Shown here: piece by piece, positions 3,588-43,334 of the stretch | Numbering within the stretch: position 1 is the first letter of the stretch | Layout: each line of letters begins with the position of its first letter | NCBI GenBank assembly: GCA_012735535.1 | Contig: JAAYHC010000068.1 | Location: 62,282-126,281, forward strand | Length of the DNA stretch: 64,000 bases | Direction of reading: 5' to 3' | Source: Bacillota bacterium | GTDB taxonomy: Bacteria; Bacillota; UBA5301 | Made by a program: the position numbers and the translations under genes | The notes under the pieces: model-generated | The model's input: only the letters and a program-made list of their open reading frames with translations | Database searches by the model: none | What the model was told of the DNA's origin: nothing

Positions 3588-6029
3588 TTATAAGAAAGAA
3601 GCCGGGTCTACATCAATGCTGATCCGTAAATCAGCCTCATGTGTACCGGTTATTTTCTGGGAACAATGATAAACTCGCAGACGATCCTGATCACTGACTG
3701 CCGGAGCCGGCCACTTGATCACAATTTGATACCGGTAACGATTTCGTAATTTGGGCAGTGGAGCAGGACGGACAGACAGCACTTTAGCTGCGGGCGAAAG
3801 TTCGCCGCGGAGCTGTTGTTCCAACAAGGTAGCAGCTTCTAGCCCCGTATCTTCTTGTGGAGAGCTAATCGATATCAGTACCATAGCACAAAAAGGCGGG
3901 TAATTCAAGCGACGACGAAAGAGCAGCTCCTGCTGATAAAACTCGGCGTAGTCATGTCCAGCTGCAGCTACGATGCTGTAATGCTCGGGATTATAGGTCT
4001 GCACAACCACGTGCCCCGGTACGTCTCCTCTCCCAGCGCGACCGGCCACTTGACTTATCAATTGAAAGGTACGCTCGCTGCTGGCGAAATCAGGCATATT
4101 CAGGGTTAGGTCGGCGGCAATTACCCCGACGACGGTAACCCGTGGGAAATCGAGACCTTTGGCAACCATTTGGGTGCCGACCAAGATGTCCGTTTGACCG
4201 GCTGCAAATGCGCCCAAGATTTTTTGGATACTGCCCTTACGTAGGGAAGTTTCGCCATCAAGGCGGGCAACGCGGGCGCTAGGGAAATACTTGTATATTT
4301 CTCTTTCCACCCGCTCGGTACCAACGCCAAAATCACGAATATATGGGCTCTTGCAAATCGGACAGGATTTTGCCAAGGGAGCTTCATGTAAACAATAATG
4401 ACAAGCCAAACGTGGCAGAGCTCGGTGCACCGTTAAGGAGACTTCACAATTGGGGCAGCGGATCACATGGCCGCAGGAGCGGCACAAGACAAATGAAGCA
4501 TAGCCCCGCCGGTTAAGAAATAAGATCACCTGTTGCCGGGCTTGTAGCGCTTCCTCCACCCGGTTCAACAAGGATCTGCTAAAGATGGAGCGATTGCCCG
4601 CTTTAAGCTCCTCGCGCATATCACAGATTTCAACGGTGGGCAAAAGGCTGCGGCCAATCCGCTTGGGCAAAGTATGCAAGTGATATGTGCCGGTGGTAGC
4701 TCGATAATAACTGGTTATTGAAGGGGTGGCGCTGCCGAGAACGAGGACTGCCCCGGACTGGCGAGCCAATTCTTCGGCAACCGTCGGAGCGTGGTAAAAC
4801 GGCGCTTCCCCTTGTTTATAGCTGTTTTCATGCTCCTCATCTACAATAATCAAGCCTGGATTAACGAGAGGCGCAAAAACGGCCGAGCGAGCGCCGAGTA
4901 TCACCCGGGCTTGCCCAAGCCGGATTCTGTTCCATTCATCAAAACGCTCTCCGGTGCTGAGGCGACTGTGGAGAACCGCAACGAGGTTCGGAAAAGCAGC
5001 ATTGAACTCCGCTGCGATCTGCGGAGTCAACGCGATCTCCGGAACCAAGATCAGCACAGACTTATTCGTGGCAAGCACCGCTTTGGTCAAGCGCTTGTAA
5101 ATCTCCGTCTTACCACTGCCGGTGACGCCATGGATCAAGTGGACGCTAAATCCTTGCCCTAACTGAGCGGAGATCCGGTTAAAAATCTTGGCCTGATCCG
5201 GGGTGAGTTGTAATTCTTTGGCCTGCGGCTGGTGGGATAACTCAAGCGGCCGTCGGTTTTGCGTCAACGTTGTTTCGGTGACCAAGCCCTTTTTGACTAA
5301 ACCTTTAACTACTTCACGGCTGACCCCGGTCGCTTGCAAAATGTCATTGTAGGTAGCCGGGCTATGCTCACCTAAATAGGTAACAACTTTTTGCTGCAGT
5401 TCGGTAAGCTTTTCGCAGTCGTCCGAGGTTAGCAGGTATCCTTTGAGCGTCTTAGCCCGCACGGTTTCAGCGGAAAGCTGATGCCGTTTCAAGACTACAC
5501 CGGCCGCAACTAATTCCCTAAGCGCATAATCCGCCGCACTGCCAAAAGCTGTACAAATCTCACGCCGGGAGACCGGTTTGCTCTTATTCACCAAATAACT
5601 ATAAATCGATCTGGCCTGAGGTGATAATTCGCCTGCCTCAAATTCTAGCCCGCCCTCAAGCGAAGCTGCTTGATAATAGAGCTGGTATTTCCCCTGAAAG
5701 CCCCCGGGAACCATTGTTTCCAGCACGGTTGCCAGCGGACTGAGGTAATAATCTGAGATCCACCGGGCCAAATTAATTTGTCCCGGCGTTAACCATAATT
5801 CCTCCGGTTCAAGATCGCTAATCGGTTTTAAAGGGCTGGTAGTTTCCGGCTCCGCTGAAAGCTCAAACACATACCCGTGAACAGGACGGTTGCCAAAAGG
5901 AACCGTAACCTTAGCACCCTCATGGATGACCTTAACATACTCCGGTGGAATAACGTAGTCATACAGCTGACTACGTTGACCGGTATTAACTAACACGGCA
6001 ATCCTGGCAATCAAGTAATTTCCTCTCAT
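3588..6029 (-). CDS. priA: primosomal protein N' (replication restart helicase PriA)
   Basis: 813 aa with Walker A GVTGSGKTE and a Cys4 zinc-binding insert CRSCGHVIRCPNCEVSL. Confidence 0.95.
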   Translation of the reverse strand: MRGNYLIARIAVLVNTGQRSQLYDYVIPPEYVKVIHEGAKVTVPFGNRPVHGYVFELSAEPETTSPLKPISDLEPEELWLTPGQINLARWISDYYLSPLATVLETMVPGGFQGKYQLYYQAASLEGGLEFEAGELSPQARSIYSYLVNKSKPVSRREICTAFGSAADYALRELVAAGVVLKRHQLSAETVRAKTLKGYLLTSDDCEKLTELQQKVVTYLGEHSPATYNDILQATGVSREVVKGLVKKGLVTETTLTQNRRPLELSHQPQAKELQLTPDQAKIFNRISAQLGQGFSVHLIHGVTGSGKTEIYKRLTKAVLATNKSVLILVPEIALTPQIAAEFNAAFPNLVAVLHSRLSTGERFDEWNRIRLGQARVILGARSAVFAPLVNPGLIIVDEEHENSYKQGEAPFYHAPTVAEELARQSGAVLVLGSATPSITSYYRATTGTYHLHTLPKRIGRSLLPTVEICDMREELKAGNRSIFSRSLLNRVEEALQARQQVILFLNRRGYASFVLCRSCGHVIRCPNCEVSLTVHRALPRLACHYCLHEAPLAKSCPICKSPYIRDFGVGTERVEREIYKYFPSARVARLDGETSLRKGSIQKILGAFAAGQTDILVGTQMVAKGLDFPRVTVVGVIAADLTLNMPDFASSERTFQLISQVAGRAGRGDVPGHVVVQTYNPEHYSIVAAAGHDYAEFYQQELLFRRRLNYPPFCAMVLISISSPQEDTGLEAATLLEQQLRGELSPAAKVLSVRPAPLPKLRNRYRYQIVIKWPAPAVSDQDRLRVYHCSQKITGTHEADLRISIDVDPASFL

Positions 6030-12423: not shown

Positions 12424-12454
12424 GTAAAAAAAATGCACCCCCCTACAGGGGTGC
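12424..12454 (-). terminator. rho-independent terminator downstream of the AMP-binding ligase gene
   Basis: Hairpin gcacccc...ggggtgc followed, on the minus strand, by a run of 8 T (an A-run on plus at 12426-12433). Confidence 0.8.
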
Positions 12455-12473
12455 AATGAAGTGTTTCTCCAGT

Positions 12474-14150
12474 TTACGCCGTTTCGGACTGGCGATCCGT
12501 TGTCTCTTCAGCAACAAGTTGATTGGCTATTTCACGTAGTTTGTACTTCTGAATCTTCCCGGAGGTGGTCATCGGAAACTCGGTCACAAACCGGAGATAC
12601 CGCGGCACTTTGTGCCGGGAGATGCGTTTACGCAAATACTCGAGTATCTCCTCTTCAACCGCCTCTACATCAGGTTTCAGCTTCACAAAAGCGAAAACTT
12701 CTTCCCCGTAAACCTGGCTCTGCACGCCGACCACCTGTGCCTCCGAAACTTTCGGGTGCTTGTGCAGATATTCCTCAACCTCGCGCGGGTAAATGTTTTC
12801 GCCGCCACGGATAATCATATCTTTGATCCGTCCAACGATCTGGTAATACCCGTTTTCATCAACACAAGCCAGATCACCGGTATGCAGCCAACCCTCTTCA
12901 TCAATAGCCGCAGCCGTTGCCTGGGGGTCTTTATAATAACCTTTCATTACATGATAGCCACGTGTGCATAATTCGCCAGGCTGACCTGGTCCAAGCTCAC
13001 GACCGGTTTCGGGATCGATGATCTTAACTTCAACGTGAGGCATAGCTCTACCAACCGTGGATACTCGTAGTTCTACCGGGTCGGTGGTATCGGTCATCGT
13101 AATTGCCGGCGAGGCCTCTGTCTGACCATAGGTGATCGTAATCTCACGCGCTCCCATCCGTTCCATAACCTCACGCATTACCTCTTCAGGGCAAGGCGAT
13201 CCGGCCATAATACCGGTGCGAAGCGTGGATAACTTAGTCTTGGCAAAGTTGGGGTGTTCGAGCATGGTGATAAACATGGTCGGAACCCCGTGCACAGCGG
13301 TGCAACGTTCCTGTTCAATTACTTCTAACGTCCGCCGTGGGCTGAAATGATCGAGGGCTACGATCGTACTGCCATGCGTCACGCAAGCCATGATACCAAG
13401 TACGCAACCAAAACAATGGAAAAAGGGTACCGGAATACACAAACGATCCCAGGCGGTCAATTTCATCTTTTCGCCAATCTGAAATCCGTTATTAACGATA
13501 TTATGGTGAGTTAGCATCACGCCCTTGGGGAAACCGGTCGTTCCTGAAGTGTACTGGATGTTGACAACGTCATCCCAGCTCAGCTCCGCTTCGCGCGCGG
13601 CCAACTCGCGATCCGAGATCTTGCTGGCTAAGCTCAGAAAATCAGCCCATTTGAGCATACCGACAGCTGGCTGGTCGCCGATTTTAATCACGCGTTTCAG
13701 CTTAGGCAGAGCAGCACTCTGCAAATTGCCCGGTTGGCAAGAGAGCAGTTCCGGACAGAGTTCAGTCACCGTTTGCACATAATTAACGTCTTTGAAGCCA
13801 TCAATGACAAATAATGTGGTCACATCGGCCTGTCTGAGCAAATACTCCAGCTCAAACAATTTGTAGTTGGTGTTAATGGTAACCAAGACCGCGCCCATCA
13901 TTGCTGTCGCAAACTGGAGTTCCAGCCACTCCGGAACATTCGTCGACCAGACGGCAACATGATCCCCTTTTTCTACTCCCACGGCCATTAAAGCCTTGGC
14001 TACTACGCGACAGCGCTGTTCAAACTCGCGATAAGTCCACCGCACCCCCTGGTCCGGAAAAACGGCGGCCTCATTATCGGGAAACTCCGCGCAGATTCGG
14101 CTCAACATTCCGCCAATAGTACAGTCCATCAGCTCTACATCTCTACTCAC
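12474..14150 (-). CDS. AMP-dependent synthetase/ligase (acyl-CoA synthetase family)
   Basis: 558 aa with the IQYTSGTTGFPKGV AMP-binding motif. GTG start at 14150 with AGGAGG upstream; an alternative ATG lies at 14129. Confidence 0.85.
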   Translation of the reverse strand: MSRDVELMDCTIGGMLSRICAEFPDNEAAVFPDQGVRWTYREFEQRCRVVAKALMAVGVEKGDHVAVWSTNVPEWLELQFATAMMGAVLVTINTNYKLFELEYLLRQADVTTLFVIDGFKDVNYVQTVTELCPELLSCQPGNLQSAALPKLKRVIKIGDQPAVGMLKWADFLSLASKISDRELAAREAELSWDDVVNIQYTSGTTGFPKGVMLTHHNIVNNGFQIGEKMKLTAWDRLCIPVPFFHCFGCVLGIMACVTHGSTIVALDHFSPRRTLEVIEQERCTAVHGVPTMFITMLEHPNFAKTKLSTLRTGIMAGSPCPEEVMREVMERMGAREITITYGQTEASPAITMTDTTDPVELRVSTVGRAMPHVEVKIIDPETGRELGPGQPGELCTRGYHVMKGYYKDPQATAAAIDEEGWLHTGDLACVDENGYYQIVGRIKDMIIRGGENIYPREVEEYLHKHPKVSEAQVVGVQSQVYGEEVFAFVKLKPDVEAVEEEILEYLRKRISRHKVPRYLRFVTEFPMTTSGKIQKYKLREIANQLVAEETTDRQSETA

Positions 14151-14301
14151 TAGTATCCTCCTCGCTTCTTTCCTACTACGCGCATCAACGCGCCTACACT
14201 CTCCTCACTTCGAAGCAATCCTCTATTTGCTGCTAATACCTGTTCATTCACTCACAGCTTATACCGACCACCTCTTCCGCAACTTATTCAATTGTCAAAG
14301 T

Positions 14302-14339
14302 ATAAAAAACGGACCTTTCGCTAGAGACGAAAAGGTCCG
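14302..14339 (-). terminator. intrinsic terminator, expression platform of the putative T-box leader
   Basis: An 11-bp bulged stem (cggacctttcg / cgaaaaggtccg, minus-strand sense) followed by TTTTTTAT on the minus strand. Confidence 0.75.
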
Positions 14340-14540
14340 TGGTACCACTCTAATTAGCCATAACAATGGCTCACTCTTGCTCCAGATATCGGTGGAAACC
14401 GGTTAGCTCTACTTGCTGAGTTTCAAGCTACTGCTCCAGGGGGAGTTCACCTAGCAGCCGAGGCTGTCTCGCAGCAACCGACAGCTCTCTGTACTCGACA
14501 CCTCTAAGTTACTGATCCCTATCATCGCCTCGAACTTATA
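14340..14540 (-). promoter_or_regulatory. putative T-box riboswitch leader (tRNA-sensing antitermination element)
   Basis: Minus-strand sequence AATTAGAGTGGTACCACGG matches the T-box consensus AAUUAGGGUGGNACCGCGG and runs directly into the 5' arm of the terminator. Upstream are a GGCGATGA (GA/K-turn-like) element and a CAGAGAG element, as in Stem I. Confidence 0.6.
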
Positions 14541-14545
14541 CGGTT

Positions 14546-15082
14546 TTAAGATGTCTTCGATGTTACCGACCTTGGACGCCGTGCCAAGTTCTGACTAAAC
14601 TGCACTACCGGTTGGAGAACGGCGATACCAATGGCGTTTATTGCAATCGCCGGGATAACAACGGTAATATAAAGAGCGCTAAAGCTACCCGGCAAGCCAA
14701 CAATCAGAGCCGCAGAACCCAAAAAGACCAATCCGCTTAAAGCGGTGCCGACAATTGTAATAATCTCCGCCCGGACAATCGGCGACAAAGAAGCGGGCAA
14801 AGAACGTAAAATCAAATAAACAATGCTGGCGGTAACTGCTTTATCGATGATGTTCGGCAACTGGCCTCCCGGAAAAGTAGAGGTAATTGCAGCCAACACC
14901 CCACCCAACAAGCCGGTGACCAGTACCATTTTATAATCATCATGTTTGAGCAACAGAGCGATAAACATCATCAGCAGAAGTGTATCGGGTTTCATCCCAA
15001 ATAACAGCGGGGGGGTGATGAAATGTAAAATATACCCGATAGCCAATAACAACGCAACCTGAATACCATCACGAACTTGCAT
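14546..15082 (-). CDS. small polytopic membrane transporter, TrpP-like / ECF S-component-like
   Basis: 178 aa, 5-6 predicted TM helices, conserved ...FPGGQLPNIIDK... block. Confidence 0.5.
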   Translation of the reverse strand: MQVRDGIQVALLLAIGYILHFITPPLLFGMKPDTLLLMMFIALLLKHDDYKMVLVTGLLGGVLAAITSTFPGGQLPNIIDKAVTASIVYLILRSLPASLSPIVRAEIITIVGTALSGLVFLGSAALIVGLPGSFSALYITVVIPAIAINAIGIAVLQPVVQFSQNLARRPRSVTSKTS

Positions 15083-15149
15083 CTGTCTCCACTCCTCTTT
15101 TCTCTTCGTTCTCTTCTCAACTCACCTGTTCTCTCGGCAAGTTACTGGT

Positions 15150-15178
15150 AGTATATCACATCGGTTCCAATCTGACAA
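15150..15178 (-). promoter_or_regulatory. sigma-A-type promoter for the TrpP-like gene
   Basis: Minus-strand TTGTCA, 17 nt, TATACT. Overlaps the stop codon of the upstream gene. Followed by an RBS AGGAGTGG. Confidence 0.5.
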
Positions 15179-16607
15179 TAATTAATTGTTTAGCTTTTTC
15201 CTCCCTATCTTGGTTGATACTAAACTTTTGAGCAGGGTTGACATACTGGATCGCCGGAGCCTCGGCCGGAGTTAATACAGCTTGCCACAAGTCCGGGGCG
15301 ACAAGTTTCTCAGTCGCGGCGTTTTCGTAGTCACGTTTAGAGAAAAAATCTTCACGATGCGTAACTGCTTCCAGCTCGACCACCAAACGCTGGCGAGCAC
15401 TTAATTTATCAGCTAGTTCACGGGCAACTTCAGTGCCACGGCTCTCCTGACACAGGGTAAAGACCCTGTTGTTGGCCTCACCCAGCTGGGCTTGCAAACC
15501 TTGTGGCGACGCCTTCTGCCAAGCCTTCGTATAACGATCTAAACGATAGTCCAGCTCAGCGCGGATTCGATCAGCCTCTTGTTGGGCGTAATATTTCCTG
15601 AGCAGTTCGGCCTCATCAGTACCGGCCAAATGTTTTTTCAGTTCTTTCTTGGTCCGACGTAAGTCAGTTTTAGCGTCCAGCAGTTGATCTTGACAATCAA
15701 AGTACTGATCGGCTCCGGCTTTATTTTTCCGGTACCAGACTGCGGCAAAAGCCAAGAGACCGACGCCAACAATCGCTGAGCCAATCAACAGTTCGCCCAG
15801 ATGAAAACCTAGATACCAGCCGATTACTGTGAGAATGAGCAGACTCAGACCTAGCCAAAACATGGAAAGTGCACGGCGATAGCCGTCGTACTCGGGCATC
15901 AGTGCGGCAATTTTACTGTTCAAATCCGCTATTTGCTCCTCGAACCGGTTAATTCGTTCTTTTATTTCTTCAAGTTCCGCGATATATTCCGGCTTAACCG
16001 GGGAGCCAATTATACCTTGCACCGAAGCGGCAAATTTTTCCGTTTGTTCCTGGACTTGACAGACTTTGGCCCATAATAACCGGCGCATCCCGTTAATATG
16101 CGCGATTTCTCGCTGCAAGGCGCAAACGTTGTCCACCTCTTGCCGTAGGTTTTCAACAGCCTCACCGGTCAAGGCGGTGATCGCTTCTTCCATGGCAGCG
16201 AGTTTGCTCAAAAAACCAGTCGCGGTTTGGGTAGGCTCGCCTTGATTTAGCACCAACAGATTGTGCAACTGAGCCGGCGATGTGACACCCCACTTGCTGG
16301 CGATCAGATGGGCTAAATCGGTGATCGTCTCCGGAAGCCGTCCGTCCTGTGACAGGTGTTCCCCCTCAGCATCCAGGCGATACACCCAGGTTGTTTCATC
16401 AGATTCGACAAACTTCAAGGTGACAAAGTCTTCCGGTTGCAGGGTCAAACTCTCCGGTGCAAATACAACCTTGGTGAACAGAGCAAAGTCTTCTGTGCCG
16501 AGCTCCAGCGGTTTATCCGGCGAAAGTTCAAACCTCGCCCTGCTGTTTTCAAGCTGATATTGAAAACAAACCAACTTCAATTTACCCCACCACCCACAGT
16601 ACTTCAT
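15156..16607 (-). CDS. hypothetical coiled-coil membrane protein (two central TM helices), third gene of the SNF2 operon
   Basis: 483 aa with long heptad-like charged stretches (EELEEIKERINRFEEQIADLNSKIAAL; KTDLRRTKKELKKHL) flanking a hydrophobic hairpin (LSMFWLGLSLLILTVIGWYLGFHLGELLIGSAIVGVGLLAFAAVWY). Confidence 0.6.
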   Translation of the reverse strand: MKYCGWWGKLKLVCFQYQLENSRARFELSPDKPLELGTEDFALFTKVVFAPESLTLQPEDFVTLKFVESDETTWVYRLDAEGEHLSQDGRLPETITDLAHLIASKWGVTSPAQLHNLLVLNQGEPTQTATGFLSKLAAMEEAITALTGEAVENLRQEVDNVCALQREIAHINGMRRLLWAKVCQVQEQTEKFAASVQGIIGSPVKPEYIAELEEIKERINRFEEQIADLNSKIAALMPEYDGYRRALSMFWLGLSLLILTVIGWYLGFHLGELLIGSAIVGVGLLAFAAVWYRKNKAGADQYFDCQDQLLDAKTDLRRTKKELKKHLAGTDEAELLRKYYAQQEADRIRAELDYRLDRYTKAWQKASPQGLQAQLGEANNRVFTLCQESRGTEVARELADKLSARQRLVVELEAVTHREDFFSKRDYENAATEKLVAPDLWQAVLTPAEAPAIQYVNPAQKFSINQDREEKAKQLIIVRLEPM

Positions 16608-16624
16608 CCATTTCTATTTATCGT

Positions 16625-18010
16625 TCAATCGAGAATTTCCTCTCCTGACAGAAGGTTCACACAACAGGGACAGACTGCAGGGCCACAACGGCAGCACAAA
16701 AGGCAATCCGTACTGCTCGTCGCAGACGGCAACAGACAGGAATACCGGCAGTACTGGCAAATTTTCTGCCCACATCCGGGACAAACGGCGGCTGGAAACA
16801 TGGTAGGCTGCCCGCACACTTCACAGACCTCAGCGCATCTGGAACATAACAGCCCTGCCTCAGAAGTTATCATCAGGTCATAAGTTGGGCGCTCACACCT
16901 CTGACACTGTAGGTCCAGCCAAGCATCAGCACAAAAATCGTACACCAGTCTAATCCTTTCGCACTCGTTCAACCGGCTTTCTACGGTGAACACAGCTCGC
17001 GGTAGGTACACGCGGGCTGCAGAAACAAGAGTGACCAGTGCCTGCGGAGTGTATTTCCTCCTTAGCTCATGCAGACGCTTACTTTTTTCCCTGGCTAACA
17101 TTTGCCCGTACCGACTGCAGCGATCTTTTTCGTACTGGATTTGTTGTCGATAATCCTCTAGTCGACTATTGAAAAGCTCCCTGGTTTGCGCCGTTTTGGC
17201 CAGGGCGACCCGGACTTCGAGTACGGCTGCTTTGTGCAATAACTCGTATAAACGTTTCATTTCTTCGCGTAACAAAGTATCGTAATACTCGTCCAAGACT
17301 TGCTCTTCGCATTTAAGCCGAGCCAATTGTTCTTTTTCAAAGGCAGAAAAAGACTCTAAAATCCAGCGGTGGAGGAAAAGGCAGGCTTGCCGATAAAGCT
17401 GGAAAGTCCGGTAATCTGTCTCACGGAACCAGCTCAAGTTGGCTAAATGCGTGTCGAGTAAACTTCCTTTCTCTTTATAGAGTCGAGGGTATCTCCTCCG
17501 GTCCGGCAAGGGACGAAAGCCCTCCGGTAAACTGCACAGCCCCTTCGGCAGCTCCCAGATTTCCACTTGATCAGTTTCCGGATCGGCCGCCAGACTGATG
17601 AGCAAATCTTTACGCAGATCGGCAAGCAAAGACAGGCGAAAGAGAAAAACCAGCTTGGCATGGTAGATTATCGTCGGTTGCCGGGCTATAAGATGGACAC
17701 CTTTCACCGGTATGCGCGCCAGCTTCTCTCGAAAAACTGCGTAGTCTTTCGCCGATAAAGGATAAATTAGATTGGCGGCCCAACCTTGGCTCCGGGCGGA
17801 ACTGATCAAACGGTCCAGTACCGGGTGGCCGTAGGTGATAAACTCGGCCGAATCAGCGCCGATCAGGTCAGGCTGATGAGTATACGTCACCGGCTCACCG
17901 TCGAACCAAAAGCGGAAGACATTTTCGCCAATCCTCTCGCGTTCGATGCCCTGATAGTGACAGAATAATTCGATGAACCGGGCAACATCCGAACAACCTG
18001 TACCACTCAT
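16625..18010 (-). CDS. hypothetical protein with a C-terminal cluster of CxxC zinc-ribbon motifs
   Basis: 461 aa. The C-terminus carries CQRC, CSRC, CEVC, CPGC, CQYC, CLLCCRC and CPCC. 4-nt ATGA overlap with the helicase gene. Confidence 0.6.
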   Translation of the reverse strand: MSGTGCSDVARFIELFCHYQGIERERIGENVFRFWFDGEPVTYTHQPDLIGADSAEFITYGHPVLDRLISSARSQGWAANLIYPLSAKDYAVFREKLARIPVKGVHLIARQPTIIYHAKLVFLFRLSLLADLRKDLLISLAADPETDQVEIWELPKGLCSLPEGFRPLPDRRRYPRLYKEKGSLLDTHLANLSWFRETDYRTFQLYRQACLFLHRWILESFSAFEKEQLARLKCEEQVLDEYYDTLLREEMKRLYELLHKAAVLEVRVALAKTAQTRELFNSRLEDYRQQIQYEKDRCSRYGQMLAREKSKRLHELRRKYTPQALVTLVSAARVYLPRAVFTVESRLNECERIRLVYDFCADAWLDLQCQRCERPTYDLMITSEAGLLCSRCAEVCEVCGQPTMFPAAVCPGCGQKICQYCRYSCLLPSATSSTDCLLCCRCGPAVCPCCVNLLSGEEILD

Positions 18011-19761
18011 GAACCTACCCCCAACAAACCATCGGTAAATGACTGCAACTCCCGATACTCTGAGATGCGGCGGACTATCTGGTCGACGATATCATCACCT
18101 TCTTTGGCCCCACTGTCGGCCACCCCGAAAAACCGGTCGGCAATCTGCTTCTCCAGACTCAAGCCGCCGGCCGCAATAATGGCCTCAACGTCCCCAACCA
18201 CATCCGAAAAAAGGCGCAGCTTTTCGTCTAATAATTGTAAGACATATTCCTCAATGGTATTGGCTGCAATGAGGTTAATTATCTGCACATCATGCTGTTG
18301 CCCGAGGCGGTGCAGGCGTCCGATTCTTTGCTCAACGCGCATCGGATTCCAGGGCAAGTCATAGTTAACCAGGACATGGCAGAACTGCAAGTTGCGCCCC
18401 TCCCCACCAGACTCGGTGCTAATCATGATCTGGCTCCGTTGACGAAAATTGGCCACGGCAGCATCTTTTTCCGCCAAAGATAAACCGCCGTGAAAAATCG
18501 TAGTGTTAAAACCTTCCGCCTCCAGCCTTTGGGCCAGATAGTCTTGGGTTCGCCGAAACTCGGTAAAGACCAGTATTTTCGTTCCCATCTTGCGCGCAAT
18601 TTTAAGGAGCTGCGTAAGCTTAGCAAAGTCGTTTAGTTCGCTGCCAATGCTAATCGCCCGTTGGATGGCGGCTCGTTCGGCAGCTGGTAAGTCCCTTTCT
18701 CTGACGAGCAACTGTTCTAACGAGGCCACCGCAGCTTGCGGGGAACTACATACTTCCCGCGCCATGACAATTAAGGGCAGAATCGTCTGGCGCTTCTGGT
18801 TGCGCTGTCGGTAAACTGCGCGCAAACCACTCACCGCAGCCGCCATAAATTCTCGCTCCCCGACGGTTGGCTGGACGACTTGCGTACTCACCACGCGCTT
18901 GGGCAGCTTGAGCAGCGTTTCGCGTCGATTTGACCGCACCATCACCTGGCCAAGTAAGTTTTTTAGCTTTTCTACGTTTTTCGGCGTCCGCTTATCCAGG
19001 ACAAACTCTTGTTTGAATTCACGGAAGGTTTTGAGTTGTCCCGGTTTGAGCAAAGTGATGAGGTTATACAATTCCCGTAGATCGTTCTGGACCGGCGTCG
19101 CAGTGAGCAGCAATAAAAATGTCTTTTGTAGCCCGTTAACAAACTGCCAGTTCACCGTCGATTTATTCTTTAACTTATGGGCCTCATCAACCACGACGAG
19201 GTCATACCGGTTTTGCAACAACTTGCTGCGCTGAGGTTCTCTTTTGGCATAGTCAATTGAGACCAGTAACAGGTCTTCCTGCCAGGAAACAGAGCCATCT
19301 TGAACTTTAAACGGAATTTTCAACCTATTGACCAGTTCTTCGTACCACTGGGTAACCAATGAGGCCGGCACGAGGAGCAAGATCCGTTTGACCAAGGAGC
19401 GCAGTAAATACTCTTTCATAATTATTCCGGCCTCAATCGTTTTACCCAAACCGACCTCATCGGCCAAGACCGCGCGTCCCCGCAGCTCTCTGAGCACCTT
19501 TAGGACGGTCGCTTGCTGATGTGGGTAGAGGACTATTTCCGGTAATGCTTCCAAAGCCAAAAGCCGGTCAAAACCGGTTTGCAGTGAAAGTTTGTTTGCG
19601 GCTTGATTGAGTAAATAATGCCCGATTGAGGAGTATTCCTGCCAGACCAATTTGGCCAAGACCCGATTATTAACTTCGTTGAAATATATCTCCATTGCTG
19701 ACTTCCTCCAGGGGTAGTTTCCCCTGTTTAGCTGGGAAGATTCGGTTCGCGAAGATTCCAA
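18007..19761 (-). CDS. SNF2-family ATPase/helicase, minimal core (SNF2_N plus Helicase_C)
   Basis: Motifs LADEVGLGKT, VVVDEAHKLKN, LLLTATPVQN, STESGGEGRNLQ, QRIGRLHRLGQ. The track ORF starts with TTG at 19761. The ATG at 19695 (MEIYFNE), with a GGAGG 9 nt upstream, is the likelier start. Confidence 0.9.
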   Translation of the reverse strand: MESSRTESSQLNRGNYPWRKSAMEIYFNEVNNRVLAKLVWQEYSSIGHYLLNQAANKLSLQTGFDRLLALEALPEIVLYPHQQATVLKVLRELRGRAVLADEVGLGKTIEAGIIMKEYLLRSLVKRILLLVPASLVTQWYEELVNRLKIPFKVQDGSVSWQEDLLLVSIDYAKREPQRSKLLQNRYDLVVVDEAHKLKNKSTVNWQFVNGLQKTFLLLLTATPVQNDLRELYNLITLLKPGQLKTFREFKQEFVLDKRTPKNVEKLKNLLGQVMVRSNRRETLLKLPKRVVSTQVVQPTVGEREFMAAAVSGLRAVYRQRNQKRQTILPLIVMAREVCSSPQAAVASLEQLLVRERDLPAAERAAIQRAISIGSELNDFAKLTQLLKIARKMGTKILVFTEFRRTQDYLAQRLEAEGFNTTIFHGGLSLAEKDAAVANFRQRSQIMISTESGGEGRNLQFCHVLVNYDLPWNPMRVEQRIGRLHRLGQQHDVQIINLIAANTIEEYVLQLLDEKLRLFSDVVGDVEAIIAAGGLSLEKQIADRFFGVADSGAKEGDDIVDQIVRRISEYRELQSFTDGLLGVGS

Positions 19762-24137: not shown

Positions 24138-24920
24138 TTAGAATGGTTCTTGAACCATGGTGGCAACCACGTTGGCCAGCAACTTAGCACTCCGTTCGGC
24201 TTGCGCCATAGTTGTTTGCGGATGACTGCCGATATAAACAGCGACGGATTGCGCATGCTTCTCCTGGTTATAGGTACCTTCTTTGAGCATTACTCCTCTG
24301 CATAAACCGGGATACATCTCCTCCATCCGGGCCTGAAGCTCATTGGCGAAAGCCAAATTTTGCGCATAATTAGGGTTATCTTTGCCGACCACCAACAGGA
24401 TTCTGGCTACATCTTGCCCATGTAAGGTGGTCGTTACTCTGCTGGCCGGAGCTGAAGCGGGCACTCCATCACGATGGAGATCGAAAATCATCTGCAGATT
24501 GCTATTAGCGCTCACGGTCGCCGCTACCGTCTCTGCAGCGTTTTCGTAGGCCACTCTGAAGACAGGATAGTCATGAACAGCCTGGGAATGGATCGTCTTA
24601 ATCCCGCGTAAACTTAACTCCTGGGCAAATATTTTACCGATCTCTACGATATCGCCGTGATCACCTTTGGCAAAGCTCTCCTTTGGCGCGTAATTTTGGC
24701 TGGTGTGAGTATGGTAGATCGCCACTAGCGGCTCGGAAACCCTAGTCACTTGGTTAACAACCGGAGGCTCCGTTTGCGTAATGACAAAATCACCACCACT
24801 ATCGCCCGGGTAAAACCCTAAATACCGAGCTCCCAATACTGCTACCACAACCAGGGCTATCAGTACAAAGAATAATCCCGATCCGTTTTTCTCGGCCTCC
24901 CAATCTTTGAACCGTGCCAT
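24138..24920 (-). CDS. spoIIP: stage II sporulation protein P (SpoIIP family)
   Basis: 260 aa with an N-terminal TM helix and a signature-like AIYHTHTSQNY. Confidence 0.7.
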   Translation of the reverse strand: MARFKDWEAEKNGSGLFFVLIALVVVAVLGARYLGFYPGDSGGDFVITQTEPPVVNQVTRVSEPLVAIYHTHTSQNYAPKESFAKGDHGDIVEIGKIFAQELSLRGIKTIHSQAVHDYPVFRVAYENAAETVAATVSANSNLQMIFDLHRDGVPASAPASRVTTTLHGQDVARILLVVGKDNPNYAQNLAFANELQARMEEMYPGLCRGVMLKEGTYNQEKHAQSVAVYIGSHPQTTMAQAERSAKLLANVVATMVQEPF

Positions 24921-24948
24921 CTGTTAGACCTCCCCCCTATTCGCCACA

Positions 24949-24977
24949 AATATATGCCGTGTCCACGGTCAATATGA
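24949..24977 (-). promoter_or_regulatory. putative sigma-E-type sporulation promoter of spoIIP
   Basis: Minus-strand TCATATT, 14 nt, CATATATT, matching the mother-cell sigma-E consensus (kmATATT ... CATACAmT). Followed by an RBS GGGGGAGG. Confidence 0.5.
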
Positions 24978-24990
24978 CGATTTTCGGGGG

Positions 24991-25018
24991 CAAAAAAAAG
25001 CCGCTCAAAGAGCGGCTT
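24991..25018 (-). terminator. rho-independent terminator downstream of the sat-like gene
   Basis: Hairpin aagccgctc / gagcggctt followed, on the minus strand, by a run of 8 T. Confidence 0.85.
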
Positions 25019-25038
25019 TAGTGCGATTAATTGCTAAA

Positions 25039-26778
25039 CTATAGTGCGGCTTCAGCCGGTTCGTCCGCCTCGGTTTCCGGCTCCTCGACATCTTTGTCGG
25101 CCCCGCGATAGCGGTAGTACGGAAGCGGGTTCCAGGTCCGGTACTGGATCTGTTTGGCATGCAGCGGCCGCGGAATATCGTTGAGCAATTCCTGGGCGAC
25201 CTCAAGTTCACGTTTAGCCTCCGCTTTGTCTTGGTACATGAACTCATCAGAGGCTTTTTCCGGAGCTCCTTCGACCTTCTCGATTAGGTCTTGAATTACC
25301 ATATGCTGCTGGCCGGCCATCAGCTCACGGGCATCGGTTACCCACTGCGGCTGGAGATCGCGATTGGAATCGGAAACATAGCAGAATTCCGCATAGGTTT
25401 CCGCGTAGATGCGATCGGCGTTCTGGCGCGCATCAAGCATCGCGGCCTCCAAATCGCGGTTGGTCAATTCAGCCGGATCGAGCGGCTTGTAGCGATAACG
25501 GCCACCTAACCGGGTAGCTGTGAGATAGAAGGGGAAAATTCCTTTAATCGTCTTGCCGACCGGATAGATGGAGTTGCCATCGGCATCCACACCTTTGGGC
25601 TGAATACCTTGCATCGCAATACGGCTGGACTCAGGACGGCAGATCTCCTTCGGTGGCATCATGCCGCGCCGCAACAGCTCTCTAATGCCGGTACCGGAAA
25701 TGGAAATTCTGAACCGCTCATCATGCGGGCAGGTCTTGACAGTAGCGAGCGAATCGCAGCGAGTGCAGTAGAAAACCTCGTGATACAAGCGAACTTGGAT
25801 ACCTAACTCTTCAGGGGTGAACTCATCAAAAATCGTATGGCAGGCGTACTTGTCGTAATAATCGCCTACACCGGCATGGTCACGGCCGATGAGAGCGTGG
25901 GTACAACCGTAATTCTTCATAATCAAGACGTGCAGTACGGCTTCGCGCGGCCCGGCGAAAATATAGGTTACCCGGAGCGGCGCCAGGGTCACTTGGCCCT
26001 TGGGATAATAGGTATCCAAGATGGCGCGATAAGCGAGAATACGGAACTCGTTACGAGTATACTCTCTCTTCGCCATCTCGACCAAAGGTTGGATGAGCAA
26101 GCCGTCAATGGTTTCGAGGGCATTCTTGTGGATGTACTCATGCCCGCGGTGTACAGGGTTGGCCCCGGTGATAAAACCGCCGACCGATTTATATTTCTTT
26201 TCCTCATAGAACAGATGCCAGGTATCTTTGGGCTCTAAGCGGAGCTTTTCAAAAGGACCCCAGTTGACCCGGCGCAACAGACGAATCGGACCGCCTAAAG
26301 AGATGTCGCCCATCCGTCTGAAGATCGCGTCAACACCCGGATGGTTTCGGTCGGTAGTACCGAACAAGCACTTGGCCCGTTCCTCCTTGTTGTACTTAAA
26401 GATGTCCTGAACCTCTAAGATGGCGATAGGCTCTTTATCCTCGTTGATGATCGCGACTTCCGAACCAACCGACAGTGACTTGATCACTTCGCTATTGCGC
26501 TGCCCTGCCGGCGCGAAGCTGAGCGGGGTCGGCCAGATCAGGCCGTTCTGCAGCCTACCGGAATACAAAACAGATTTATAATCTGCTTCATTCATAAACC
26601 CTTCGTTTGGAGAGAGAACACCGGTGGCGATCATCTCGATAGTAATCGCCGCTTCCTGATCAACCATAATTTTGGGCAATGATTGGGCCTTCTCCAATTC
26701 CCCGGCTAATTGATCTTCAGGGACAACCCGGTTTACTAATTTGCCACCATGTGGCTGTTGCGGATATTTAGAAAACAT
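25039..26778 (-). CDS. ATP sulfurylase (sulfate adenylyltransferase) family protein, divergent, with a long acidic C-terminal extension
   Basis: 579 aa with an N-terminal HGGKLVNRVV and GRDHAGVGDYY motif. The expected QTRN motif reads ITGAN (FITGANPVHRGHE). About 180 extra C-terminal residues end in EEPETEADEPAEAAL, with no P-loop. Confidence 0.7.
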   Translation of the reverse strand: MFSKYPQQPHGGKLVNRVVPEDQLAGELEKAQSLPKIMVDQEAAITIEMIATGVLSPNEGFMNEADYKSVLYSGRLQNGLIWPTPLSFAPAGQRNSEVIKSLSVGSEVAIINEDKEPIAILEVQDIFKYNKEERAKCLFGTTDRNHPGVDAIFRRMGDISLGGPIRLLRRVNWGPFEKLRLEPKDTWHLFYEEKKYKSVGGFITGANPVHRGHEYIHKNALETIDGLLIQPLVEMAKREYTRNEFRILAYRAILDTYYPKGQVTLAPLRVTYIFAGPREAVLHVLIMKNYGCTHALIGRDHAGVGDYYDKYACHTIFDEFTPEELGIQVRLYHEVFYCTRCDSLATVKTCPHDERFRISISGTGIRELLRRGMMPPKEICRPESSRIAMQGIQPKGVDADGNSIYPVGKTIKGIFPFYLTATRLGGRYRYKPLDPAELTNRDLEAAMLDARQNADRIYAETYAEFCYVSDSNRDLQPQWVTDARELMAGQQHMVIQDLIEKVEGAPEKASDEFMYQDKAEAKRELEVAQELLNDIPRPLHAKQIQYRTWNPLPYYRYRGADKDVEEPETEADEPAEAAL

Positions 26779-30779: not shown

Positions 30780-33533
30780 CTACTCCTTGTGCTGACTCAG
30801 CTCATCAATCACTGCCTGCAGGCGAGACATTGTTCGGCCGTAGGCAGTCCAATCACCGGCGGCCAAATCTTGCTGCGCCTGGTTAAAGAGGCGGACAACT
30901 TCGTTGATCAGTTCGGGCAGGTTTTCCTCCGCATCTTCCCGCGGCAGCTGGTCAGGCAGAGCAGGCACGGCCTGCACTACATCTGCGCCTTCACCGGCAA
31001 TTTCCCGGAGCGCTTCATCCAGGCTGGACGCCATCACCACCTGATTGCCATAGGCGACAATCACCCTGGCCAGCTCCGGTAGTTCGCTCTGCGCCGAGCG
31101 CAAGTAAAGCGGTTCAACATAAAGGATGGTTCCTTTAATCGGGATAACCAACAGGTTGCCCCTGATCACCGAAGAACCGCGCGAATTCCAGAGGGTCAAC
31201 TGCCGGCTGATCTCGGAATCCTGGTCAATGCGGGCCTCAATCTGCATCGGCCCAAAGGTAAGCGCCTGTTTGGGAAACTTGTACAATAGTAATTGGCCAT
31301 AACCCTCAGTGTAACCGGGACGAGCAGCCAACCAGGCAATCATGTTGTTTTTCCGGCTCGGGGTAAATGGCCTGATAAGAATGAACTCTTCCCCTTCCCC
31401 ATCTCCGAGGTCGGAAACGAGGTAGAACGGCTCCATTTCGATTTCCCTGTCCTGATAGATCTCATTGGGAATATTCCACATATCTTCATTGTTGTAAAAA
31501 ACCGTCGGATCAGTCATATGGTAACGGGCGAGAATCCTTGATTGCAGATCGAACAAATCCTCCGGATAACGCAAATGACTGACCAGCCCGCTCGGCATCT
31601 CGGTAATCGGCTTAAACAGCGTAGGAAAGATCTTTGCGTAAACCTGCGCAATTGGCTCCTTTGGATCAACCAAGTAATAAGTGACCTGACCGGAGTAGGC
31701 ATCAATGACGACCTTGACCGAGTTACGCACATAATTGCCCCATCCGGCAACAGGTTGGGAATACGGGTACAGGTTGCTGGTGACATACGCATCTTGGATC
31801 CAGTACAGTTTTCCCTCATTGATTACCAGGTAGGGATCGCGGTCATATCTGAGAAATGGCGCAATCCGCCGTACCCGCTCATGAATATTGCGGTAAAACA
31901 TCACGCGGCTCTCCGAGGTAATCTCATTAGACAACATGATCTTGAGGGTCTTAAACCGAAAAGCCGCAGCTGCTTTAACAAACGGATTGGAGAGTTGCAC
32001 TCCGCCGCTGCCGGCATACTTGACATAGGCATTCTGATCTCCGACAGGATAATCAAATTCCCCCGCCTTCGTATTGACGATGACATAACCATCCTGTGAC
32101 TCACCATAATAAATGGCCGGTTGGGTGATCTCCAATTCAGGATAGGTGCTGACCGGGGGAATATTCTTTACCCAAAAATTAGGCATACCTTCGGCATTAA
32201 CCTCATTAACCGGGCTAACTACCGCGCCGTAACCGTGGGTATAGATTAGTCGCTGATTAATCCAGGTTCTAGCCTGTTCAGCCAGGCTGCGGTTGTTCAT
32301 TTCGCGGGCCGAAATGGCCACCTGACGCAGCGAACCATCGATCCAGTACCGATCGATATCCACCTCCAGGAAATCATAATAGAGTCGCATCTCTTGCAAT
32401 TGACCATAACTGGCCAAGAGCGGGCGATAATCCCAGAGGCGGATATTGTCAATCAAGCCCTTTTCCTGTTTCAATGCTTGATAGCTAAGCTCCGGCCCTA
32501 ACTCGAATTCACGTTCTTCGATCTGATCAAGCCCATAAGCTTTGAGAGTGGACTCAATATTGAATTTGATATATGGTGATTCTTTGGCTAATTCATTCGG
32601 CTCCACAACAAAATTCTGAATGAGATTTGGATAGATACCACCGATCAGGAGTGATCCTGCAACCAACAGAACAACACTGGCAACCATATAGCGGGCTTTT
32701 CTGATGATTGCGGCCACGATCATCAAGATAGCGGTTAAAATCGCCAGCCAGAATAAAATCTTATAACCGGGGACAAGCACTGTTACATCGGTATAGCTGG
32801 CTCCGGAAACCACTCCGCGGGTAGAATAAACCAAATTATACATCGCGACCCGGTAGCCCAATCCTTGTACGATGAACAAGAGGGCGCTAAGGACGGCCAG
32901 GTGGTAACGGGCCCGGCCCTTAATAATCACTTTGAACTTGGCAAAGCCAAAAGATCCGAAAACAAAGTAAATGAAGCCTACCGGAATAATGGTCATTACC
33001 AGTAAGCTCATCACAAGCTCATAAGCATACTTGTAGAACGGCAATTTAAAAAGATAAAACCCGATATCTCGACTAAAAAGCGGATCAGTCTCCCCGGTGC
33101 TCACTGCATGGATAAAGCTTTGCAACAGTTCCCAGTTGCCGCCGGCGGCTGCACTACCCATGACCGCCAGCACCAGCGCGACTACCACAAAAACCGTGGA
33201 AACACGTTTTGAGGTTAGAACCTGAGCTATCTGCGGAAAAGCCTGAATATTGCTGATTGTTTCACCGATCACCGGCTTGGTCAGTTGTAAGTTGACAAAA
33301 ATAAAAGCAAAAAAGACAATCCCGACAAGTAGGTATAACAACCACTTTGAGATTACGACTGTCCAAAAGACCGAAGCATACCCCAAGTTGTCAAACCAGA
33401 GCAAATCGGTATAAAACTCGGCACCCAGGGATAAAAAGCCGATAATCAGTACTATGGCGGCGATGATAATTCTGCGTAACCGCTTGATAGCTAGGTCCCC
33501 CCTCTGGAAAACTATTTCACAACAGGACGCCAC
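30780..33533 (-). CDS. UPF0182 family large membrane protein
   Basis: 917 aa with an N-terminal polytopic region (YTDLLWFDNLGY) and a large extracytoplasmic domain. Confidence 0.7.
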   Translation of the reverse strand: MASCCEIVFQRGDLAIKRLRRIIIAAIVLIIGFLSLGAEFYTDLLWFDNLGYASVFWTVVISKWLLYLLVGIVFFAFIFVNLQLTKPVIGETISNIQAFPQIAQVLTSKRVSTVFVVVALVLAVMGSAAAGGNWELLQSFIHAVSTGETDPLFSRDIGFYLFKLPFYKYAYELVMSLLVMTIIPVGFIYFVFGSFGFAKFKVIIKGRARYHLAVLSALLFIVQGLGYRVAMYNLVYSTRGVVSGASYTDVTVLVPGYKILFWLAILTAILMIVAAIIRKARYMVASVVLLVAGSLLIGGIYPNLIQNFVVEPNELAKESPYIKFNIESTLKAYGLDQIEEREFELGPELSYQALKQEKGLIDNIRLWDYRPLLASYGQLQEMRLYYDFLEVDIDRYWIDGSLRQVAISAREMNNRSLAEQARTWINQRLIYTHGYGAVVSPVNEVNAEGMPNFWVKNIPPVSTYPELEITQPAIYYGESQDGYVIVNTKAGEFDYPVGDQNAYVKYAGSGGVQLSNPFVKAAAAFRFKTLKIMLSNEITSESRVMFYRNIHERVRRIAPFLRYDRDPYLVINEGKLYWIQDAYVTSNLYPYSQPVAGWGNYVRNSVKVVIDAYSGQVTYYLVDPKEPIAQVYAKIFPTLFKPITEMPSGLVSHLRYPEDLFDLQSRILARYHMTDPTVFYNNEDMWNIPNEIYQDREIEMEPFYLVSDLGDGEGEEFILIRPFTPSRKNNMIAWLAARPGYTEGYGQLLLYKFPKQALTFGPMQIEARIDQDSEISRQLTLWNSRGSSVIRGNLLVIPIKGTILYVEPLYLRSAQSELPELARVIVAYGNQVVMASSLDEALREIAGEGADVVQAVPALPDQLPREDAEENLPELINEVVRLFNQAQQDLAAGDWTAYGRTMSRLQAVIDELSQHKE

Positions 33534-34828
33534 TGCAATTTATCATGTAGGTAGGCTTTGAGCCCTTCAGTGGAAATCCGCACCTGAGCCATTGTGTCGC
33601 GATCCCGCACCGTCACCTGGCCATCCTCTAAGGACTCGAAGTCAACGGTGATGCAATACGGGGTCCCGATCTCGTCTTGACGACGATACCGTTTGCCGAT
33701 GCTGCCGGTATCATCGGTTATGACCGGAAAATCGTACTTGAGGTCTTCCTTGATCTTTTCGACCATTGCTTGTAGCTCAGGTTTCTTTTGTAACGGGAAA
33801 ATCGCCGCTTTGTAAGGAGCTAACTTTGGATGCAGCTTAAGCACAACCCGTTCGGGTTCTTCGACGAAGGCATCAACCAAGAAGGTGAGCAGCGCACGGT
33901 CGACCCCGGCGGAAGCTTCAACCACAATCGGCACATAGCGCTCGTTAGTACGATCGTCAAAATAACTCAAATCTTTGCCGCTATGCTTAATATGCTGCGA
34001 AAGATCAAAATTGCCCCGATGAGCGATCCCCTCAATCTCTTGCCAGCCAAAGGGAAACTCATACTCCAGATCGAAACAGGCTTTGGCATAATGAGCCAGT
34101 TCATCCGGGCCATGCGCCCGCTTACGAAGCTTGTTAGGGTTCAACCCCAAGCTGAGATACCAGTTCCAACGAGCCTCGACCCAGCGCTCGAACCACTCAT
34201 CAGCATCTCGCTCGGAGACAAAAAACTCTAATTCCATCTGTTCAAATTCGCGGCTACGAAAGATAAAGTTGCCCGGGGAGACTTCGTTCCGGAAACTCTT
34301 GCCAATTTGGGCGATCCCAAACGGTATGCGTAAGCGCGAAGCAGCTTGGGTTAACTTAAAGTCAACAAAGATTCCTTGGGCGGTCTCCGGGCGAAGATAT
34401 ACTACCGCCGCATCTTCTTCAACCGGACCTAAAAAGGTTTTAAACATCAGGTTAAACTGTCTGGGCTCGGTCAATTCGCCACCGCACTCCGGACAGACCT
34501 CAGTGCTCAAATGGTCGGCCCGGTAGCGCCGCTTACACTGTTTACAGTCCACCAACGGATCGGTGAAGTTAGCTAGATGTCCGCTAGCCCGCCAAACATC
34601 CGGGTGCATCAGAATGCTGGTATCAGCCCCCACCACATCATCGCGTAGATGGACATTCGCATACCACCAAGCATCCTTGATGTTGCGCTTCAGCTCAGCC
34701 CCTAATGGACCATAGTCCCAGCAGCTGTTGAGACCTCCATATATTTCGCTGCTCTGATAAATGAAGCCGCGTTGTTTGCACATCGAGATCAAGCGATCCA
34801 CAATCGAAAACCCCTTCCTAGAACTCAA
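33512..34828 (-). CDS. glyQS: glycine--tRNA ligase, dimeric class II type
   Basis: 438 aa starting MSSRKGFSIVDRLISMCKQRGFIYQSSEIYGG. Confidence 0.9.
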   Translation of the reverse strand: MSSRKGFSIVDRLISMCKQRGFIYQSSEIYGGLNSCWDYGPLGAELKRNIKDAWWYANVHLRDDVVGADTSILMHPDVWRASGHLANFTDPLVDCKQCKRRYRADHLSTEVCPECGGELTEPRQFNLMFKTFLGPVEEDAAVVYLRPETAQGIFVDFKLTQAASRLRIPFGIAQIGKSFRNEVSPGNFIFRSREFEQMELEFFVSERDADEWFERWVEARWNWYLSLGLNPNKLRKRAHGPDELAHYAKACFDLEYEFPFGWQEIEGIAHRGNFDLSQHIKHSGKDLSYFDDRTNERYVPIVVEASAGVDRALLTFLVDAFVEEPERVVLKLHPKLAPYKAAIFPLQKKPELQAMVEKIKEDLKYDFPVITDDTGSIGKRYRRQDEIGTPYCITVDFESLEDGQVTVRDRDTMAQVRISTEGLKAYLHDKLQWRPVVK

Positions 34829-42140: not shown

Positions 42141-42176
42141 TGTATCCCCCCGCTCATGGCCGCTGCATTTCATTAA

Positions 42177-42206
42177 CAGTATGGCCATGATTTTTCGGAG
42201 GTATAC
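42177..42206 (-). promoter_or_regulatory. putative forespore sigma (SigF/SigG)-type promoter upstream of sigG
   Basis: Minus-strand GTATA, 18 nt, CATACTG, resembling the sigma-G consensus (GnATA ... CATnnTA / CATACTA). Confidence 0.45.
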
Positions 42207-42223
42207 CTAGGCTGTCCGGGTTA

Positions 42224-43249: not shown

Positions 43250-43274
43250 GCTAAGTTCCTCCTCAAACGGAGAA

Positions 43275-43311: not shown

Positions 43312-43334
43312 ACCAGGTATATTTTTGCTATTCT

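Follow-up and report, generated by a model that had tools for sequence, protein, structure and literature searches.

Why does a leader RNA of the T-box class, whose targets are ranked in Sun 2013 as aminoacyl-tRNA synthetases, then biosynthesis genes, then transporters, stand in front of a gene for an AMP-forming acyl-CoA ligase? The question arises on the minus strand of a 64-kb stretch of contig JAAYHC010000068.1 from a Bacillota bacterium (the window), where a sequence-only reading had proposed a T-box-like leader with an intrinsic terminator between a TrpP-like gene and an AMP-binding ligase gene. We find that the leader is very probably a complete, functional, transcription-attenuating T-box riboswitch that reads tRNA-Leu and governs the acyl-CoA ligase. 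Our best interpretation of the locus as a whole, which we favour by a modest degree, is that of a leucine T-box riboswitch on a single-gene operon encoding a ligase of the YngI/liu type, which would serve the salvage of isovalerate to leucine.

We scanned the whole window against all 4227 Rfam families using cmscan, and the single match was to RF00230 (T-box), at 14534..14320 (-). This match scored 140.8 bits against a gathering score of 93 (E = 2.4e-31) and spanned model positions 1-219 of 219 without truncation, which is far beyond chance; a permissive Rfam scan of 14100-15200 (E <= 10) gave nothing besides RF00230. The elements previously picked out by eye were recovered at their places on the minus strand. 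These were the T-box motif AATTAGAGTGGTACCACGG (14355..14337), which agrees with the consensus at 17 of 19 positions (mismatches A for G at 7 and 16), the GA/kink-turn-like motif of Stem I, GGCGATGA (14529..14522), the AG-box-like CAGAGAG (14491..14485), and an intrinsic terminator after the T-box with the arms GGACCTTTTCG (14338..14328) and CGAAAGGTCC (14320..14311) followed by T6 (14309..14304). The flanking genes were also named correctly, encoding TrpP (PF17099, 176 bits) and an AMP-binding enzyme (PF00501, 352 bits, together with PF13193).

The pairing of a T-box with this ligase was surveyed at about 164 loci (80 from GTDB, 80 from metagenomes, and syntenic relatives of the window) by a motif scan of the upstream regions followed by Rfam. 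Three syntenic relatives (L085, from the NCBI metagenome-assembled genome GCA_017656135.1, L086, and L087) have T-boxes of 109-129 bits in the same place and keep the window's gene order of SNF2 helicase, two unknown genes, trpP, ligase, and Ca-ATPase; their ligases are 67-73% identical to that of the window in full-length alignment, and the specifier loop (G/C)AACUCC is conserved between them and the window. Five GTDB genomes of uncultured Clostridia/Bacillota (L047, L065, L070, L075, and L081) have a T-box of 103-128 bits directly upstream of the ligase. The T-box core was also present in six of the 80 metagenome loci: the leaders of L093, L098, L100, and L102 scored 110-122 bits, that of L122 contains Ns in its sequence and shows the full layout by eye, and that of L091 is cut by the contig end. 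The window leader has the top score of the 13 leaders above the Rfam threshold. Comparison with relatives, as the sequence-only reading had suggested, therefore places a T-box directly upstream of the orthologous ligase in several lineages, always with a leucine specifier. We found no conserved partner genes beside the T-box-linked ligases, whose neighbours differ in every lineage, and rejected the idea of conserved functional partners on that ground; given that the flanking genes are unrelated between lineages, the association is confined to the leader and the ligase.

In the covariance-model alignment, Stem I of the window leader is followed by Stem II, the IIA/B region, Stem III, and then the antiterminator (Table 1). 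Folded alone, the antiterminator has a minimum free energy (MFE) of -5.1 kcal/mol and the terminator one of -17.3 kcal/mol. The two structures are mutually exclusive, with positions 14340..14322 common to both and the terminator 5' arm and loop overlapping the 3' half of the antiterminator; a weak antiterminator set against a strong terminator makes the switch off by default, as is standard for T-boxes, and only the added stacking and pairing by the 3' end of an uncharged tRNA can hold the antiterminator. When the whole leader was folded as a single sequence by MFE, the T-box architecture was not recovered, a failure that is usual for such RNAs, and comparative evidence was needed for this reason. 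Across an alignment of 12 orthologous leaders, 87.8% of the cells in Stem I pair, a value that drops to 40-48% once the partners are displaced by 1-3 columns, so that the Stem I and specifier-loop architecture expected of a T-box can indeed be folded. Compensatory changes were present in 14 of the 18 Stem I pairs, and the covariation score was reached by 0 of 500 shuffles. Extra pairs proposed by RNAalifold within the specifier loop, between AGU (columns 22-24) and ACU (columns 93-95), were dropped as an artefact that would bury the specifier.

The specifier codon, which could not be assigned by eye, can be read from Stem I as CUC (leucine). The 4-bp helix closing the specifier loop in the window is AGGG/CCCU and leaves GAA-CUC-C unpaired on the 3' side, so that the triplet at the canonical position is CUC. 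This helix is 100% paired in the 12 leaders and changes on both sides at three of its four pairs, as in AGGG/CCCU of the window compared to GGAG/CUCC of L085. Under the TBDB rule, which takes the specifier from nucleotides 2-4 counted from the 3' end of its bulge, frame 0 reads leucine in all 14 readable ligase-linked leaders, CUC in 13 and CUG in one (L102), and the UGGU bulge is invariant in the same 14. Bacterial tRNA-Leu has the discriminator A73, which pairs with UGGU, and the earlier prediction of A73 from the bulge thus agrees with a leucine specifier. Judged by the sequences of these leaders, leucine is the only assignment that holds in all readable cases, because the +1 frame gives tryptophan in L102 and the -1 frame is inconsistent.

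Two competing assignments were rejected. Serine, by way of UCC in the +1 frame, conflicts with the helix covariation, under which CUC is followed by a single unpaired base; in the +1 frame 13 leaders have UCC, UCA, or UCG but L102 has UGG (Trp), whereas frame 0 is always leucine, and UGGU suits A73 (Leu) better than G73 (Ser). Threonine, by way of ACU in the -1 frame, fails in L093 and L098, which read UCU and GCU there. Among the T-boxes in TBDB, CUC accounts for 74-77% of leucine specifiers, and UCC is the commonest serine specifier (PMC7778990). The leader of L102 (228-460) is the only ligase-linked one with CUG, a codon found in ~7% of leucine T-boxes in TBDB, and would need a tRNA-Leu with a CAG anticodon.

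As an RNA, the window leader resembles the leucine T-boxes of leuS and the ilv-leu operon in Bacillus subtilis and of leuA in Geobacter. All belong to the same Rfam family and have a Stem I with kink-turn, specifier loop, and AG bay, Stems II, IIA/B, and III, an antiterminator with a UGGN bulge, and a competing terminator; the Geobacter leuA T-box also has a CUC specifier, read by tRNA-Leu(GAG), as in the window leader (PMC2700814). In contrast to these known systems, a C replaces the purine after the specifier in the window clade, the window leader abuts the preceding gene with ~140 nt between its terminator and the ribosome-binding site (RBS), and its target is an AMP-forming acyl-CoA ligase rather than a synthetase, a canonical biosynthetic enzyme, or a transporter. 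That the target is atypical had been remarked from the sequence, and the literature bears this out. Acyl-CoA, CoA-ligase, and AMP-binding targets are absent from the main texts and examined supplements of Wels 2008 and Sun 2013 and from the main text of TBDB 2020; full-text searches for a T-box together with acyl-CoA synthetase, isovalerate, or ferredoxin oxidoreductase returned nothing relevant. The RNA is thus an ordinary high-scoring member of a well-known class that standard annotation can find, and its target class is unreported in the T-box surveys examined.

What the ligase does has to be predicted from its family and its genomic setting. Its Pfam matches are to PF00501 (351.9 bits) and PF13193 (71.3 bits), and by far the best NCBIfam match is NF009233/PRK12583 ('fatty acid CoA ligase family'), which aligns to positions 12-555 of 558 with a score of 792.6 bits. 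The core motifs of the ANL superfamily are a P-loop T/SSGTTGxPKG, YGxTE, TGD, and a catalytic C-terminal lysine; in eight T-box-linked orthologues Y200-TSGTTGFPKG-210, Y341-GQTE-345, T424-GD-426, and S530-GK-532 are invariant. We found no close solved structure, the best PDB match, to a feruloyl/fatty-acyl-CoA synthetase (270 bits), covering just the C-terminal two-thirds. A strong intrinsic terminator separates the ligase from the P-type Ca-ATPase gene that follows it (Table 1), which led us to reject co-transcription of the two and to regard the T-box unit as monocistronic.

The family is large, with at least 8000 close homologues, all scored candidates having E <= 1e-50. It is also well conserved, since the window ligase shares 58-64% identity with family members from Geobacter, Desulfuromonas, Desulfotomaculum-type Firmicutes, Clostridia, and Bacillaceae. 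We clustered the neighbouring open reading frames (ORFs) of 80 reference-genome loci and annotated the clusters. At about 33 of these 80 loci, the orthologue (58-64% identity over at least 95% of the length) lies within a leucine/isovaleryl-CoA catabolic (liu/yng) cluster, in the order TetR-like regulator, acyl-CoA dehydrogenase, ligase, biotin carboxylase, 3-hydroxy-3-methylglutaryl-CoA (HMG-CoA) lyase (NF004283, 470 bits), methylglutaconyl-type enoyl-CoA hydratase, and carboxyltransferase; we take the Bacillaceae arrangement to be that of B. subtilis yngJ-I-H-G-F-E. Several of these loci, in Ureibacillus and Geobacter, also encode 3-oxoacid CoA-transferase A/B, which would already handle the acetoacetate released by the lyase, and isovalerate is for this reason the likelier substrate of the ligase. 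A distance tree places the T-box-linked and liu-linked enzymes in a single family, within which the former make up basal Clostridia-type branches, and the YngI-type ligases of Bacillaceae and Geobacter share the same ANL motifs with the window ligase, at 58-64% amino acid identity over the full length. The two settings differ in that the YngI-type ligase belongs to a catabolic operon that a TetR-type regulator often precedes, whereas the window ligase stands alone behind a starvation-induced T-box; T-box control implies the opposite physiological direction, toward leucine supply and not consumption. At three further loci, in Desulfovirgula (L020), a Bacillota metagenome-assembled genome (L058), and Desulfoscipio (L079), two tandem ligase copies stand beside a regulator with GAFTGA and Walker A motifs, as in sigma-54 enhancer-binding proteins, a resemblance of motifs only; such loci would control this enzyme family by another regulatory route.

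From this evidence the substrate of the ligase probably has the C5 skeleton of leucine, namely isovalerate. A broader role would make the enzyme a general medium- or long-chain fatty-acid or acetoacetate CoA ligase, with the leucine T-box acting as a proxy for nutrient limitation that turns on fatty-acid scavenging or catabolism. The generic database names of the family ('fatty-acyl-CoA synthase', 'long-chain-fatty-acid--CoA ligase') would suit such a role, as would the position of about half of the orthologues away from liu genes and the grouping of YngI with fatty acyl-CoA ligases that affect surfactin yield (PMC10988940). We nevertheless consider it quite improbable, since the leucine specifier in 14 of 14 independent leaders, including the one that switched to CUG, indicates selection on leucine identity, the leucine/isovaleryl-CoA pathway is the sole genomic association that recurs in the family, and the 3-oxoacid CoA-transferase at some loci makes an acetoacetate role redundant.

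Combining leader and enzyme, we propose the following mechanism. tRNA-Leu(GAG) would dock on Stem I through the CUC specifier and the distal platform. When the tRNA is uncharged, its free ACCA end would pair with the UGGU bulge and stabilise the weak antiterminator, allowing RNA polymerase to read into the ligase gene; when it is charged, the stronger terminator would form and transcription would end at 14304. Leucine shortage would thereby produce read-through and ligase, which would convert isovalerate (3-methylbutanoate) to isovaleryl-CoA. A 2-oxoacid:ferredoxin oxidoreductase would then combine isovaleryl-CoA with CO2 and reduced ferredoxin to give 2-oxoisocaproate, and transamination would yield leucine. 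Because a T-box switches its gene on when its tRNA is uncharged, the ligase should help to restore leucyl-tRNA, and turning on a catabolic enzyme while leucine is scarce would make little physiological sense.

Passages in PMC7356843, citing Allison et al. 1962 and 1966, describe anaerobes that make leucine by carboxylation of isovalerate. Such a route must begin with the activation of isovalerate to isovaleryl-CoA, and this is the step that we propose for the window ligase. As described in those passages, the route is known from labelling physiology in rumen bacteria, whereas the window case is known from sequence; the literature that we searched holds no link of the route to tRNA charging or to this ligase family. 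We put forward, as a tentative proposal, that the family is the long-missing entry enzyme of the isovalerate-carboxylation route to leucine and its first known regulated step.

The same switch and the same reaction could also serve membrane lipids, if isovaleryl-CoA were a FabH primer for iso-odd branched fatty acids and external isovalerate were salvaged so that leucine is spared. Many spore-forming Firmicutes have branched-chain lipids, and the window carries host markers at 24138-26778 and 41364-46138 (SpoIIP, SpoIIGA, two sporulation-type sigma factors, FtsZ, FtsK, and ATP sulfurylase) by which we identify it as an endospore-forming Firmicute. The ligase is, moreover, monocistronic, without anabolic partner genes nearby. 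A partial precedent is the methylbutyryl-CoA synthetase MbcS of Staphylococcus aureus, which, in the passages of PMC10026030 devoted to it, is a dedicated, stand-alone, ATP-dependent short-chain acyl-CoA synthetase that turns external short branched acids into fatty-acid primers, much as the window ligase is proposed to activate them; in the scheme given there, isovaleryl-CoA derived from leucine primes iso-odd fatty acids. However, MbcS belongs to a different family, annotated as acetyl-CoA-synthetase-like, prefers 2-methylbutyrate and isobutyrate, uses isovalerate poorly, and serves lipid priming, so that the comparison is one of analogy only, and the same passages do not mention T-box regulation. 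T-box targets almost always raise the supply of the cognate aminoacyl-tRNA (Sun 2013), and the sparing of leucine is a less direct logic. We therefore regard the lipid-primer explanation as unlikely, if still worth serious attention, and the flow of isovaleryl-CoA to leucine rather than to lipid primers as close to evenly poised, falling a little short of probable.

Several observations weigh against a leucine T-box that drives isovalerate salvage. Only about 14 of the approximately 164 sampled orthologous loci carry the T-box, which makes the link lineage-specific, and these carriers are uncultured Clostridia-type bacteria, all of the hosts being uncultured. The base 3' of the specifier is C (14442) in the window, L085, L086, L087, and L122, and A or G in the other nine ligase-linked leaders; an unpaired purine at this position is typical of T-boxes without strictly defining them, and given the full-length model score we read the C as a probable clade-specific deviation that gives no ground for exclusion. 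No tRNA genes are present in the window, so that the fit of UGGU to tRNA-Leu draws on the A73 discriminator known of bacterial tRNA-Leu in general, and among the ~36 ORFs scanned (~20 small or distal ORFs lay outside the scan) there was no 2-oxoacid:ferredoxin oxidoreductase (VOR), aminotransferase, or leu gene. The ligase scores just under the NF009233 cutoff (792.6 vs 832), and we therefore call it PRK12583-like rather than a certified member. B. subtilis YngI is itself tied only loosely to surfactin lipid supply (PMC10988940). Lastly, two features are local to the window copy: in L085-L087 a clean promoter (TTGACA-17-TATAAT) stands between trpP and the T-box, of which the window keeps only a TATAAG, and ~110 extra nt between terminator and RBS occur only in the window and in L086 (~4880-5000), being absent in L085 and L087.

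These local features bear on whether the leader could be a decaying bystander, its hairpin serving mainly to end the trpP transcript while the ligase is expressed from a promoter of its own in the ~140-nt spacer. The leader begins only 12 nt past the trpP stop codon, the clean -35 and -10 elements of the relatives are missing, the spacer is unusually long, and a TTGACA hexamer lies just below the terminator, all of which would fit such a history. Among the signals that the sequence-only reading had listed below the terminator, AGGAGG (14162..14157) is in place 6 nt ahead of the GTG start (14150); the TTGACA (14298..14293) does exist, but has no -10 partner at 16-18 nt, is absent from the promoter-scan output, and is not kept in relatives. 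The spacer as a whole gave no Rfam match at E <= 10, a folding z-score of -0.71, no conservation, and no sigma-70-like promoter in the promoter scan, and we rejected a second regulatory RNA or promoter within it for lack of family match, structure, promoter, or conservation. In L085 and L087 the terminator is only ~35-80 nt away from the start, too short a distance to hold a promoter, and in other lineages the T-box and ligase occur without trpP upstream, making a role confined to trpP termination unlikely. A full-length match with the highest score of 13 leaders is also unlike a decaying element. We consider the bystander explanation very remote, and return to a functional leucine T-box as the reading of this leader. 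Read-through from trpP into the leader is possible, as trpP is served by a sigma-70-like promoter of its own (TTGTCA-17-TATACT, extended TG, 10/12 matches, 15178..15150 (-)); no terminator lies between trpP and the leucine T-box, and no T-box or other Rfam element was found upstream of trpP (14546-15178, -). The ~110-nt insert is preceded by an RBS/start-like remnant, GAGGTGGTCGG..GTGAGTGAATGA, which resembles the real GAGGAGGATACTAGTGAGTAG, and may be a small duplication or insertion.

Table 1 Positions in the window of the leucine T-box leader, the ligase gene, and adjoining features.
Feature	Position	Strand	Basis
Complete T-box leader, Stem I to terminator U-tract	14304..14534	-	RF00230 match extended to end of terminator T-run
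Stem I (kink-turn, S-turn element, AG bay, distal loop)	14432..14529	-	cmscan alignment and covariation, 12 leaders
Kink-turn/GA motif GAUGA	14526..14522	-	cmscan alignment
S-turn element AGUA of specifier loop	14513..14510	-	cmscan alignment
S-turn element GAA of specifier loop	14448..14446	-	cmscan alignment
AG bay CAGAGAG	14491..14485	-	cmscan alignment
Specifier codon CUC (leucine)	14443..14445	-	Closing-helix register and orthologous leaders
Conserved T-box sequence AAUUAGAGUGGUACCACGG	14337..14355	-	Covariance-model alignment
UGGU bulge, partner of tRNA 3' end ACCA	14347..14344	-	Covariance-model alignment
Antiterminator: AGAG/CUCU and ACGGA/UUCGU helix, 7-nt bulge	14322..14352	-	Rfam consensus structure
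Intrinsic terminator ACGGACCUUUUCG..CGAAAGGUCCGU and U-run	14304..14340	-	Terminator scan
Regulated gene, 558-aa AMP-forming acyl-CoA ligase (ANL superfamily, PRK12583-like)	12474..14150	-	PF00501, PF13193, NF009233
Intrinsic terminator after ligase: 9-bp stem, 6 GC pairs, then T8	12434..12455	-	Terminator scan
Spacer, terminator to RBS, ~140 nt	14163..14303	-	No Rfam match, no promoter
Candidate leader promoter TTGGCA-16-TAACAT, 9/12 matches, within trpP 3' end	14560..14587	-	Promoter scan; weak
Alternative -10 TATAAG	14540..14535	-	Weak assignment
trpP (TrpP family, PF17099, 176 bits)	15082..14546	-	Pfam

Upstream of trpP, at 15156-19761 (-), lie the SNF2-family helicase (584 amino acids) and then two proteins of 461 and 483 amino acids without a Pfam or PADLOC family; this trio has the same order in the window, L085, L086, and L087. 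The helicase matches BrxH (257 bits) and DrmD (239 bits), lacks the usual defence partners, and falls below the NCBIfam DISARM cutoffs, and the 483-amino-acid protein has a faint IS110-like match (E 2.6e-4). Elsewhere in the window, a class II aminoacyl-tRNA synthetase (tRNA-synt_2b and HGTP_anticodon, 438 amino acids) at 33512-34828 (-) has no T-box leader, that of the ligase being the only T-box in the 64 kb. What is known of the host comes from metagenome assemblies alone (Logan SRR31337343 among them).

The specificity of a T-box can be read from sequence and reliably labels the amino acid that a downstream gene serves, and it has been used in this way to annotate transporters (Wels et al. 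2008). Here the leucine specifier gives a leucine-related role to a widespread ligase family that bears only generic names, and the liu neighbourhood agrees with it, pointing to isovalerate. If the salvage interpretation is true, some anaerobic Clostridia would sense uncharged tRNA-Leu and salvage the fermentation end-product isovalerate instead of synthesising leucine de novo, a lifestyle that we suggest with some reserve. Salvage of this kind would provide a genetic and regulatory handle on the synthesis of amino acids from volatile fatty acids by reductive carboxylation, a process that matters in rumen, gut, and digester ecology and whose genes are poorly defined, and it would mean that T-box regulons reach further than the accepted synthetases, canonical biosynthetic genes, and transporters. 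T-boxes before other acyl-CoA ligases, such as those for isoleucine and 2-methylbutyrate, valine and isobutyrate, or phenylalanine and phenylacetate, may then reveal a wider regulon class, which would run volatile fatty acids back into amino acids.

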